This document shows, one piece after another, positions 39,751 to 48,082 of a DNA stretch of 64,000 nt (its first letter is position 1; the number at the start of each line of letters is the position of its first letter). This DNA is from an uncultured Actinomycetota bacterium. Lineage in GTDB: Bacteria > Actinomycetota > Actinomycetes > JACCUZ01. A program made the translations under genes and the position numbers. Under the pieces are notes generated by a model. That model had not been told where the DNA came from. It made no database searches and was given only the letters and a program-made list of their open reading frames with translations. The DNA lies in assembly GCA_963807005.1 (NCBI GenBank), contig CAWDZK010000006.1, forward strand, positions 172,612 to 236,611. Direction: 5' to 3'.

Positions 39751-40452
39751 CTAGACGCCGCCACCGACGGCGGCTGCCTGCAGCGGCCGGAGCCAGACCG
39801 CCGCACCGGCGTCGAGGTGCAGCTCGGCGTCGCACTCGGCCGCCGCCTCCGGGTCGTGGGTGGCGAGCACCACGGCTGCGCCGCGCTCGGCCTCGGCCCG
39901 GAGCAGGGCGACCACCCGGGCCCGGTTGGCGGCGTCCAGCTCGCTGGTCGGCTCGTCGGCCAGCACGACCGTTCCCCGCTGCGCGAGGCCGCGGGCGACG
40001 GCGACCCGCTGCTGCTGTCCGCCGGAGAGCTCCTCGATCAGCTGGTTGCCCGCGGCGCCCAGCCCGACCGACTCCAGGGCGGCGGCGGCCCGCGGGCCGG
40101 CCTCAGCCGTGTCGACGCCAACGGCGAGCAGCGGTACCACGACGTTCTCGGTCGCGGTGAGGACGCTGGCCAGCGCGTTGTCCTGTGGGATGAGCACCAC
40201 ACCGGCGGCGCTGGTGTGGTCCCGGTCGCGGGGCGGGCGGCCGCCGACGAGCACCTCGCCGCGGGCCGGACGGACCAGTCCCGCGAGCACCCACAGCAGG
40301 GTGGTCTTGCCGGCACCGGACGGCCCGGTCACCGCGACCATCCGGCCCGGGACCGCCCGCAGGTCGACGCCGGCGAGCACCTCATGTCCCTCGTAGTCGA
40401 CGTGCACGTCCCGCGCGACGATCTCGGTCGGGTCGGTGGCGGCGGCCGTCAT
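39751..40452 (-). CDS. ABC transporter ATP-binding protein (MacB/LolD-like subfamily).
   Basis: Walker A GPSGAGKTT, signature LSGGQQQRV and Walker B VVLADEPTSELD are present. There is a 4-nt overlap with the upstream ATPase gene. Confidence 0.8.
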   Translation of the reverse strand: MTAAATDPTEIVARDVHVDYEGHEVLAGVDLRAVPGRMVAVTGPSGAGKTTLLWVLAGLVRPARGEVLVGGRPPRDRDHTSAAGVVLIPQDNALASVLTATENVVVPLLAVGVDTAEAGPRAAAALESVGLGAAGNQLIEELSGGQQQRVAVARGLAQRGTVVLADEPTSELDAANRARVVALLRAEAERGAAVVLATHDPEAAAECDAELHLDAGAAVWLRPLQAAAVGGGV

Positions 40453-41327
40453 CGGAGGCTCCCTTCGCCGGTCTCGGTGTCGGTGCGGTCCAGCCGGACG
40501 GCGGCGTCGTCGACGATCGTGACGCGCAGCAGGGAGCCGGGCGGGACCCGCTCGAGCACGTCGGGCGGCAGGGTGAGCGAGCCGTCGCGTGCCACCACGG
40601 CGTACTCCTCGCCGCGGCGACCCTCGGCGCCCACCCGTCCGTCGCGGATGGTCACCGTGCGCGGCAGCCGCTCGGCGACCTCCGGGTCGTGCGTGACGGC
40701 CACGACGGTGGTGCCCAGGTCGCGGTTGATGTCGGTGACCGCGGCCAGCACCTCGTCGCGGCCCTCGTGGTCGAGCTGGCTGGTCGGCTCGTCCAGCAGC
40801 AGCAGACCGGGTCGCGCGGCGAGCCCGACGCCGACGGCCAGCCGTTGCCGCTGCCCGGGGGAGAGATGGGTCAACGCGGTGTGCGCCTCGTCGGCGAGCC
40901 CGACCAGGTCCAGCACCTCGCGCGGCTCGAGCAGCAGGACCGGGGCGCCGTCGTCGTCCTTGCGCGCCAGCCTCCTGGCGCCCCGCTGAGCGAACCGCAC
41001 GTTGTCGATCGGGTTCGCGTACGGCAGCAGGTTGCGCATCGCCCCCTGGAGGACGACACCGACGTCAGCGGCACGCATCCGGGCCAGCCCGTGCTCGTCC
41101 ATCCGGGCGATCTCGTGCCTCCCGACGGCCAGCCGGCCGGCGCTGGGCCGCAGCAGGCCGGCGAACAGGTTGAGCAGCGTGGACTTGCCGGAGCCGGAGG
41201 GTCCCAGCAGGCCGACGACCTCCCCGGCGGCGACGTCGAGGTCGACCCCGGACAGGGCGACGACGTCGTTGCCCTCCAGCCGGTAGATGTGGACCAGCCC
41301 GTGGCAGGACACCGGGATCCCGCTCAT
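40449..41327 (-). CDS. ABC transporter ATP-binding protein with an atypical insertion and a roughly 70-aa C-terminal extension.
   Basis: Walker A GPSGSGKST, signature LSPGQRQRL (S-to-P variant) and Walker B LLLLDEPTSQLD are present, followed by an extra C-terminal domain (TIRDGRVGAEGRRGEEYAVVARDGSLTLPPDVLERV). Confidence 0.75.
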   Translation of the reverse strand: MSGIPVSCHGLVHIYRLEGNDVVALSGVDLDVAAGEVVGLLGPSGSGKSTLLNLFAGLLRPSAGRLAVGRHEIARMDEHGLARMRAADVGVVLQGAMRNLLPYANPIDNVRFAQRGARRLARKDDDGAPVLLLEPREVLDLVGLADEAHTALTHLSPGQRQRLAVGVGLAARPGLLLLDEPTSQLDHEGRDEVLAAVTDINRDLGTTVVAVTHDPEVAERLPRTVTIRDGRVGAEGRRGEEYAVVARDGSLTLPPDVLERVPPGSLLRVTIVDDAAVRLDRTDTETGEGSLR

Positions 41328-41355
41328 GCCGCGCTCCCGTCGCCGAGGTGGGGAC

Positions 41356-47500: not shown

Positions 47501-47594
47501 CGGAGGCCGTCACGACCGCGGCCAGCACGACCACGAGCAGCGCCTGGCGTGGGCGATGGCGCAGCGCGGCGACTGTCACCCCGCCCGCCGACAT
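44502..47594 (-). CDS. Giant FtsX-family ABC permease (1030 aa), a paralog of the downstream permease.
   Basis: It has the same architecture as its neighbour, with N-terminus MSAGGVTVAALRHRPRQALLVVVLAAVV (compare MSAGRATTLRLALAGLWFRRSTAVIVLVLA in the partner). Confidence 0.7.
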   Translation of the reverse strand: MSAGGVTVAALRHRPRQALLVVVLAAVVTASAALGPLYARAVEQSVLRTVVAEAPATGRTLVVTDASTGPASPARLARLVRGTLPAQFGDPVRGADVSVVVRAPAGPARARLTSRDGVCGQVQVVDGRCARSADEAMLSHRSASALGVRTGDRLGVTAGGAGDRTVRGSVTVVGTYGVLDAASDYWAGRVRRTTTARPRSDAPAVRELDDVLTPWATLAAQRWPGLRTHLDVALLPDRLTLDDLARVGAATEAADARARTVGASAVSPIDALLDSTAGQRDQARTVIPLLAVQLAVLGVVVLAFVCAAAAEQRRPEIALARLRGHGTVGAATMLLRELGLLVLLGAALGAGLGWAVVAGAARAWLQPGVGPEARPPVALAVGASVVVGLAAILAAATPTLRQPLTALLRRVPPRASSVQVGLVEGVVVAAAVAGLVTLRSGAGGGVALLAPGLLAIAGGLLLAQATIPTAGPLARAALRGGRVSWALAALQIARRPALRRLIAIVTVACALLVFAVDAWTVSTRNRQTRAEVEAGAPVVLTVDAAGPTALRTALLDIDPRGRFATPVVVSRSATPAGPVTTAVEPAAFRRIAQWAPGAAPAPAPRAVASLQPRVVDPVPLPSDGGRLTIEASWTVAPLSRPAGFDGDPQPLSLAALVTPRGEDTRYLPLGRLRAGRHTYRAALDCADCTLTSFVIERALGDSYPVRISLAVDEVAVDGRPVDLGPSTATAWQVAMPQNYVSTAEVRPGPPLTVIDPESFASFEVRRGDVPALTPALAAGSLSVQFRAGPGQPAAPRIAPDLAGGEHLFQVTGRLARIPRSGPRGVLTDLRSLAGASPSGGGAATTYDVWLATDDPVREARLRRQLADHGLQVLDRDSTGDHVAELAAEGPALALRLAVLAGVVAVVLAAAVLVVGVATSGATRARDLAGLRLVGVPAATVRSASVREHLVVAVLGVVAGTTLGLVAAQVALPDVPLFATPDRQAVLALGPAWTAVGAAALGALVLLAAVSIAVGRALGAAAVPARLREGR

Positions 47595-47791
47595 GCCCTG
47601 CGCCTCCCCGACCCGGTGCCACCGCGCTCTGCTCGGGCGGAGCGAACGCGGCGCGTTCGGTGCGGTGCCCGGGTCGGTGCGCTGACACCGTGCCGCACCG
47701 GTCCGGCCGGTGCCGAGAGCCGGGCGGGGATCGTGACGGAATCGTTGCGGCGTCGACCGGCCGTGTCACAGGCCGGTGGCAGGGTGCAGGG

Positions 47792-48082
47792 TCAGCCGTG
47801 GAACATGCCGGCGATCCTCCGCTCGGTCTCGTCGTAGCCCTGGCCGGCCTGCGACAGCAGCTGGCTGATGCCGCCCAGGGCCTGCTGCAGGCCCTGGGCG
47901 TTGCGGCTCCAGTCGTCGTAGAGCGCCTGGAACCGGTCCTGGGCCGCGCCCGACCAGGTGCCGCTGATCGGCAGCACCCGGCCGCGCAGGCTGCCGAGCT
48001 CGGCCTCGATCTGGCCGGCTGTGCCGTTGACCTGCTGGGACAGCGCGAGCAGCTCGGCCGGGGTGACGCGGAAGGCGGTCAT
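47792..48082 (-). CDS. WXG100-family (ESAT-6-like) small helical protein.
   Basis: The 96-aa protein has a central W-x-G (ISGTWSGAAQDRF), a helix-turn-helix arrangement, a C-terminal YxxxD/E export-motif-like GYDETE and RBS GGAGG 5 nt before the ATG. Confidence 0.7.
   Translation of the reverse strand: MTAFRVTPAELLALSQQVNGTAGQIEAELGSLRGRVLPISGTWSGAAQDRFQALYDDWSRNAQGLQQALGGISQLLSQAGQGYDETERRIAGMFHG

Follow-up and report, generated by a model that had tools for sequence, protein, structure and literature searches.

An actinobacterial WXG100 gene and the adjoining YbbP-like type VII ABC transporter operon: probably two independent genetic units side by side

Gene organization of the locus

A 64,000-nucleotide stretch of DNA from an uncultured Actinomycetota bacterium (contig CAWDZK010000006.1, positions 172,612 to 236,611; the whole stretch is called the window here) carries on its minus strand a gene for a WXG100 (ESAT-6-like) protein, followed by genes for two large FtsX-type permeases (FtsX1, FtsX2) and two ATP-binding cassette (ABC) ATPases (ABC1, ABC2). 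The window is actinobacterial and has a G+C content of ~74%. Our subject is the relationship between the WXG100 gene and the transporter encoded next to it, which are understood from the evidence below as probably two separate units. The locus had come to attention through a sequence-only reading, made from the DNA letters and the translated open reading frames (ORFs) without database searches, and profile searches confirm all five genes at the positions it had called. They also bear out its description of the gene products: each permease is an internally duplicated FtsX protein, with two stretches matching PF02687, 10 transmembrane (TM) helices and two large loops; ABC1 has an atypical LSPGQ signature and a C-terminal extension, put at ~70 residues by the reading and found here at about 60-78; and the WXG100 protein has the W-x-G turn together with a C-terminal YxxxE-like motif (W43-S44-G45 and Y83-D-E-T-E87).

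The ORF up124, located on the same strand upstream of WXG100, had been overlooked in that reading. It contains a DPDDPDDPD stretch, has 511 unnamed homologues and matches no Pfam family. Beyond up124, in divergent orientation, lies a DUF4031 gene. The coordinates of all features are collected in Table 1.

Table 1. Genes and DNA elements around the WXG100 gene and the transporter operon (window coordinates)
Feature	Position	Strand	Size	Remarks
groEL	35662-37296	plus		Pfam Cpn60_TCP1
M29 aminopeptidase	37383-38708	plus		Pfam
GNAT acetyltransferase	38771-39730	plus		Pfam
ATPase ABC2	39751-40452	minus	233 aa	LSGGQ signature; ABC_tran match; 4-nt overlap with ABC1
ATPase ABC1	40449-41327	minus	292 aa	LSPGQ signature; ABC_tran match
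Permease FtsX2	41356-44505	minus	1049 aa	two PF02687 stretches; ATGA overlap with FtsX1
Permease FtsX1	44502-47594	minus	1030 aa	two PF02687 stretches
WXG100-FtsX1 intergenic gap	47595-47791		197 nt	
Transporter cis-element	47729-47770	minus		TGTGACA, 15-16 nt, then GCAACGATTCCGTCACGATC; ~135 nt 5′ of FtsX1 start
WXG100 (ESAT-6-like) gene	47792-48082	minus	96 aa	PF06013 and TIGR03930
WXG100 upstream block	48116-48157	minus		palindrome TGTGCACA (48157-48150) and -10-like TAGGTT (48121-48116)
Hypothetical ORF up124	48199-48573	minus	124 aa	acidic, 4 Cys; no Pfam match

Occurrence of WXG100 and the transporter in related genomes

A profile built from 15 FtsX1 homologues yielded 80 loci (labelled L), taken with 10-kb flanks from species-representative genomes, and the proteins of the window were mapped on them by tblastn and by iterated hidden Markov model searches over all ORFs. 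WXG100 is present near the transporter in 17 of the 80 loci, all of which belong to the closest clade (FtsX1 at least 51% identical), made up of uncultured Actinomycetota/'Frankiales' metagenome-assembled genomes (MAGs) of soil actinobacteria. The gene is located 170-323 nt 5′ of FtsX1 on the same strand in 14 loci, as it is in the window, and is set apart from FtsX1 by unrelated genes in the other three of the 17, the insertion encoding a 570-aa DUF222 protein in L010 and a RibD_C protein in L018, and the separation amounting to 3.5 kb in L016. In two clade members, L017 and L036, the two-permease operon occurs but WXG100 is missing; the transporter directly adjoins DUF4031 in L036, and a secreted-looking ORF takes that place in L017. 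In the next clade (Angustibacter-like; L019, L021, L064), the full operon of two permease and two ATPase genes occurs without WXG100, placed behind a Thiamine_BP gene in all three loci and a GNAT gene in L019 and L021. The 49 single-permease loci with enough sequence, which comprise those of Kribbella, those of Nocardioides and 15 other loci, mostly from Intrasporangiaceae-type genera and MAGs, combine one permease with both ATPases and lack WXG100. In ~60 other loci no WXG100 gene was found within 10 kb of the transporter orthologue. The arrangement of WXG100 with two FtsX and two ABC genes, for which the sequence-only reading had proposed a neighbourhood check, is therefore not generally conserved: it is confined to one clade and broken inside it. 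One retrieved protein (P0094, 1490 aa) matches the permease profile and also contains WXG100 and DUF222 domains; it looks like a run-together call of an L010-like layout.

Reciprocally, WXG100 orthologues were traced to their contigs. Those with 67-70% identity (L081, L083-L085) are found in the same gene backbone as in the window, without the transporter. The backbone order is DUF4031, a 115-aa ORF, WXG100, groEL, a cold-shock (cspA-like) gene, a PALP enzyme and trehalose-6-phosphate synthase (GT20); in L083-L085 only, DUF4031 is preceded by an XPB-like helicase gene and a gap. What differs is the slot between WXG100 and groEL. In the window (35662-48082) it is occupied by the ABC operon, the GNAT gene and the M29 peptidase gene, in L081 (10292-12102) by a glyoxalase gene and a GH62 gene, and in L083 (10292-10426) it is empty of genes, likewise in L084 and L085, so that groEL (Cpn60) directly follows WXG100 and leads on to the CSD, PALP and GT20 genes as in the window. 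From these different contents, the WXG100-groEL slot is recognized as a variable part of a backbone that is collinear in other respects. A 75%-identical WXG100 orthologue with the transporter present is found in L086. What accompanies WXG100 throughout, whether the transporter is there or not, is up124 together with DUF4031; the transporter is no such constant neighbour. The association of up124 with WXG100 is compatible with a functional tie and with plain synteny, which the present data cannot separate; homologue searches gave close relatives alone (at least 53% identity for WXG100, at least 62% for up124), without informative names.

On the transporter side, clustering of the neighbouring genes over the 80 loci revealed clade-specific synteny only, with no hydrolase or other neighbour conserved across clades, and the genomic context therefore offers no clue to the transporter substrate. 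The GNAT gene of the window is kept beside ABC2 in 4 close loci only, and no role in transport is shown for it or for the M29 peptidase.

Thiamine_BP, MarR and GNAT genes recur as neighbours, the GNATs not being orthologous to that of the window. GNAT genes accompany the transporter in four clades (window; L019, 9318-9848; L059, 8539-9138; L023, 7425-8903), in varied positions and orientations; by BLAST they are not mutually orthologous, and GNATs being common, the recurrence may be due to chance. In 11 loci (L019, 17780-18307, and 10 others), two of them Angustibacter-like and nine among the remaining genera and MAGs, a MarR-family gene comes directly 3′ of ABC2 and shares its strand; the window clade has no counterpart.

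Conserved upstream DNA elements

Each of the two units is preceded by a conserved DNA element of its own. Upstream of FtsX1, the 20-mer GCAACGATTCCGTCACGATC is retained exactly in 13 loci whose FtsX1 is 59-75% identical, in the midst of a flanking spacer that is unalignable. The element is located ~130-150 nt 5′ of FtsX1 also in L010, L016 and L018, despite the genes intervening there between WXG100 and FtsX1, and this persistence implies an internal promoter or operator. It is degenerate in L036 and L086, and the loci with WXG100 only, L081-L085, lack it. Probably, it represents the transporter's own operator or promoter. The element holds ACGAT direct repeats 11 nt apart.

Upstream of WXG100, the hexamer TAGGTT is placed 34 nt before the ATG, and the perfect palindrome TGTGCACA precedes the hexamer by ~32 nt. 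The block is kept in 15 of the 15 loci examined, among them the transporter-less L081 and L083, with the -10-like hexamer reading TAGGTT in the window and occurring as TA-initial variants elsewhere. It would represent WXG100's own promoter/operator, and TGTGCACA may be a regulator site within it. A TGTGACA hairpin was considered as a conserved WXG100 terminator and dropped, since it is strong in the window and not consistently formed in 15 other loci. An Rfam scan of 39000-49500 at E≤1 returned no RNA family.

Permeases

Each permease is predicted by hydropathy to have 10 TM helices, with large loops between TM1 and TM2 and between TM7 and TM8, and an AlphaFold2 model of FtsX1 agrees (106-sequence alignment; predicted local distance difference test score, pLDDT, 91.9; predicted template modelling score, pTM, 0.87). 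FtsX1 is composed of two FtsX bundles and two extracytoplasmic domains (ECDs), of which ECD1 spans approximately residues 38-288 and ECD2 approximately residues 520-895. An extra beta-sandwich resembling a carbohydrate-binding module (CBM) is placed in ECD2 and carries an invariant C685-x-x-C688. FtsX1 and FtsX2 are paralogues with 34% identity over the full length. In a neighbour-joining tree, FtsX1, FtsX2 and the single-copy permeases form three clades; the window and Angustibacter lineages are represented in both the FtsX1 and the FtsX2 clade, which points to one duplication before these lineages split. The family is sizeable: an exhaustive profile search gave 1,399 clusters (50% identity) at E≤1e-30, mostly of 1,000-1,060 aa. 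One sequence (P0337, 2089 aa) has two permease-profile stretches and is consistent with tandem fused permeases or a missed stop codon. The permease region (42001-48000) has a G+C content of 78%, compared with ~73-75% across most of the window, which may reflect the Ala/Gly/Leu/Val-rich composition of membrane proteins rather than a foreign origin.

No NCBIfam family was found for the permeases, and comparison of the permease profile with the PDB by sequence gave weak FtsX-domain matches only (YtrF, LolF), so a fold search was needed. Using Foldseek against the PDB, YbbP (9GE6/9GE7) was the best match, over the full length, at E=2.8e-16 and 13% identity, followed by MacB, LolC/E, BceB, HrtB and YtrF; the LolE (5UDF) and MacB (3FTJ) periplasmic domains, taken in isolation, match at E ~1e-4 to 1e-3. 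The permeases thus show FtsX-type four-helix bundles, by the double PF02687 match in each, and a large MacB/LolE-type extracytoplasmic domain inserted after the first helix of each bundle. They further share with YbbP the arrangement in one chain of 10 TM helices, in which a TM5-6 hairpin connects the two bundles and two ECDs are present.

ATPases

ABC1 and ABC2 are 36% identical to each other. Both keep the Walker A and Walker B motifs, the latter including its Glu, as well as the Q-loop and H-loop. Their signatures set them apart: 75 of 76 ABC1 orthologues carry L[ST]PG[QH] or a similar motif, and 73 of 73 ABC2 orthologues carry LSGG[QE]. The C-terminal extension of ABC1 (40452-40685 in the window) is conserved, and the features specific to ABC1 are kept in single-permease loci as well. 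Compared with Pfam at E≤10, the extension had no match. By eye it is like an AbrB/SpoVT swapped-hairpin motif, a likeness on which we make no claim. Both ATPase genes are linked to the permease in 49 of 49 single-permease loci and in 22 of 22 two-permease loci with enough sequence. The transporter therefore departs in this respect from the YbbP subtype, which has a homodimer of a single ATPase (YbbA2:YbbP1). Homodimeric ATPases are also found in the type VII systems listed for Bacillus subtilis (PMC11466899), and for YbbA2P of Escherichia coli the same is reported (PMC12646458); in the literature searched, we came across no account of a type VII system in which the two ATPases differ.

The WXG100 protein and its type VII secretion signal

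The 96-residue protein is a member of the WXG100 superfamily by its matches to PF06013 (E=3.6e-22; 78.9 bits, cut-off 27.3) and TIGR03930 (E=1.5e-23; 82.8 bits, cut-off 44.85). The W-x-G turn noted above is the central one of the fold, and the C-terminal Y83xxxE87xxI90xxxF94 fits the complete HxxxD/ExxhxxxH pattern, described by Poulsen et al. (PMC3935865) as the extended pattern that a type VII secretion system (T7SS) recognizes. WXG100 proteins encoded by single genes are reported to form homodimers (PMC3935865). The gene is not part of an ESX/T7SS cluster, its flanks being DUF4031, the hypothetical ORF, the ABC operon, the GNAT and M29 peptidase genes and groEL. In agreement with the sequence-only reading, no member of the EccC, EccB, EccD or MycP families was detected among 45 window ORFs scanned with Pfam, every large ORF included, and the 64-kb window has no ORF of EccC size. 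Most simply, WXG100 would be an orphan single-gene substrate of T7SS type, most likely acting as a homodimer, with its machinery encoded elsewhere in the genome.

Other notable genes of the window, at 6344-7429, 54910-55954, 56082-59069 and 61046-63931, encode an RTX calcium-binding repeat protein, a PadR-HAAS regulator pair, a 995-aa STAND-like protein with zinc-ribbon, adenylate-cyclase, AAA_16 and TPR domains and a 961-aa PKD/Big_3 surface protein, respectively.

Discussion

The comparative data are best explained by two independent genetic units placed side by side, the WXG100 locus and the transporter operon, and we estimate the probability of this reading at roughly 0.8. The first unit would be a single-gene WXG100 locus, embedded with its own promoter region in a conserved backbone; the second would be an operon of four genes, closely spaced or overlapping at their junctions, that has a conserved upstream element of its own and is lodged, in part of the clade only, in the variable slot between WXG100 and groEL. 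The sequence-only reading had tied WXG100 to the transporter and considered a handling system for a WXG100-fold protein outside the T7SS. It had itself named what would count against handling, namely that WXG100 has its own promoter and terminator and is not conserved beside the transporter in related genomes, and the findings go against handling accordingly: the adjacency is limited to one clade and interrupted there, WXG100 occurs without the transporter, and a promoter-like block precedes WXG100 while another element precedes FtsX1.

Several observations weigh on the other side. WXG100 is located closely 5′ of FtsX1, on the same strand, in the 14 loci and the window. The evidence for both promoter assignments is sequence conservation; a generic sigma-70 promoter and terminator scan of 47400-48700 gave nothing, the E. 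coli-type consensus being uninformative at 75% G+C, and by scan the 197-nt gap holds no intrinsic terminator with a U-tract, so that read-through into the transporter from the WXG100 promoter is conceivable. A T7SS elsewhere is an assumption, given that the 64 kb of genome examined contain none. The ATPase heterodimer, the sharing of ATPases and the substrate class, discussed below, are drawn from gene content and from homology at ~13% identity.

Part of these observations would equally suit a coupling that is regulatory only, with read-through in this clade putting WXG100 and the transporter on one transcript and under a common signal, without physical or functional interaction. The common strand, the missing U-tract terminator and the layout kept in 14 loci are in its favour. 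We nonetheless consider it unlikely: the strongly conserved element ~135 nt before FtsX1 persists despite upstream insertions, which speaks for a promoter or operator internal to the cluster; in the window, the WXG100 stop codon is followed by a GC-rich hairpin (-13.9 kcal/mol); and over evolution each unit has parted freely from the other.

As for the transporter unit, the modelled fold and the gene content identify it as an uncharacterised YbbP-like type VII (MacB/FtsX-superfamily) ABC system. The suggestion of the sequence-only reading that the operon could encode a MacB-like exporter for some other substrate is thereby supported and refined to a YbbP-type type VII ABC permease. A module of Bce type, sensing antimicrobial peptides or conferring resistance to them, would share the 10-TM permease, and BceB is matched structurally at E ~1e-6; however, the permeases have two large ECDs as compared to the single TM7-8 ECD of BceB (PMC11466899), neither a histidine kinase nor a response regulator, such as would form a BceRS-like two-component system, is conserved beside the operon in any clade, and YbbP is the better full-length match. 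Assignment to the BceAB type was rejected on these grounds, and a Bce-like function appears quite improbable.

The sequence-only reading had further proposed a heteromeric transporter on the basis of two permeases and two ATPases. The heteromeric character would apply to the ATPase pair and not to the permease pair, because each permease is a complete pseudo-dimer in itself and the single-permease relatives keep both ATPases. The conserved core of the family consists of one 10-TM duplicated permease and two different ATPases. We propose that ABC1 pairs with ABC2 as a heterodimer docked on the non-equivalent halves of one permease, which would give one ATP site of consensus type and another carrying the non-consensus L[ST]PG[QH] signature. 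Two conventional transporters, one composed of FtsX1 with an ABC1 homodimer and the other of FtsX2 with an ABC2 homodimer, would accord with the gene order of two permeases and two ATPases and with the homodimeric build of characterised type VII systems (PMC11466899, PMC12646458), but such a division is very improbable when 49 of 49 single-permease loci retain both ATPases, with the ABC1 signature and extension. With the permease gene having been duplicated once in the window and Angustibacter lineages, FtsX1-ABC1-ABC2 and FtsX2-ABC1-ABC2 are probably alternative complexes with one ATPase pair in common; a supercomplex is conceivable.

If YbbAP, MacB and LolCDE are a guide, the transporter probably works by mechanotransmission, in which binding and hydrolysis of ATP would shift the stalk helices together with both extracytoplasmic domains. 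The substrate would be a membrane- or wall-associated compound, hydrophobic or glycan-bearing, that is pulled or expelled from the membrane at its outer face, as opposed to a folded protein being carried across.

That the YbbP-like transporter handles WXG100 in place of a T7SS, by export, extraction or presentation, or that WXG100 was recruited in this clade as partner of the transporter in a T7SS-independent route, for instance by being co-transcribed with it and then extracted, presented or released, is hardly tenable and largely refuted by the comparative data, for against the short same-strand gap of 170-323 nt (window and 14 loci) and the lack of a T7SS gene in the 64-kb window stand the adjacency restricted to one clade and interrupted or absent within it, the WXG100 orthologues without the transporter and the ~60 transporter loci without WXG100 within 10 kb, the complete T7SS signal of WXG100, the action of characterised type VII ABC systems (MacB, LolCDE, YbbAP; PMC12646458) at the outer face with no channel for a folded four-helix bundle, and the fact that no literature link between WXG100 proteins and FtsX transporters was found.

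Had a MacB-type transporter taken the place of a T7SS in serving the WXG100 protein, this would have constituted a new secretion route; the evidence indicates that the adjacency is accidental. The locus has its importance in pointing to a sizeable uncharacterised actinobacterial family of YbbP-like transporters whose fixed features are two different ATPases, one of them non-consensus in its signature, and an ECD2 with a CBM-like insert. The family would be a natural test case for the way in which two unequal ATPases together power a mechanotransmission permease that is itself fused and asymmetric.

Comparison with known systems

The WXG100 protein resembles the sagEsxA-like proteins encoded by single WXG100 genes (PMC3935865) in its length of ~100 aa, the WxG turn, the HxxxD/ExxhxxxH pattern including YxxxE and the lack of a WXG100 partner gene. 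In contrast to these, no T7SS core gene is present in the 64 kb, and its constant neighbour is an uncharacterised, cytoplasmic-looking ORF of 115-124 aa.

Among the transporters, YbbAP(-TesA) of E. coli (9GE6, 9GE7, 9GE8; PMC12646458) is the closest counterpart. In YbbAP, the periplasmic domains are located between TM1-2 and TM7-8, a linker is formed by TM5-6, one YbbP combines with two YbbA, coupling helices are found at TM2-3 and TM8-9, and there is evidence for hydrophobic compounds being extracted from the membrane (PMC12646458). The same duplicated 10-TM permease, with the ECDs in the same places and the TM5-6 linker, is found here; the ATPases are separate polypeptides in both systems, and ABC1 and ABC2 are related to YbbA, LolD and MacB. 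Unlike YbbP, the permease of the present family is ~230 residues longer and carries the additional CBM-like beta-sandwich in ECD2. No TesA-like hydrolase is conserved nearby, and the window lineage has a second, paralogous permease in a monoderm actinobacterial host. Two different ATPase genes, one of them with the L[ST]PG[QH] signature and the C-terminal extension, replace the YbbA homodimer.

With MacB and LolCDE, the family has in common the FtsX four-helix bundle and the MacB/LolE-type periplasmic fold, and its mechanism is presumed to be mechanotransmission likewise. MacB and LolCDE have 4-TM subunits, whereas two bundles are fused here in one chain, without a MacA-like adaptor or machinery for lipoprotein substrates. 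The distribution of asymmetry appears to be the reverse of that in LolCDE, where heteromeric membrane subunits are combined with a LolD homodimer: in the actinobacterial family, the ATPases would be the heteromeric part.

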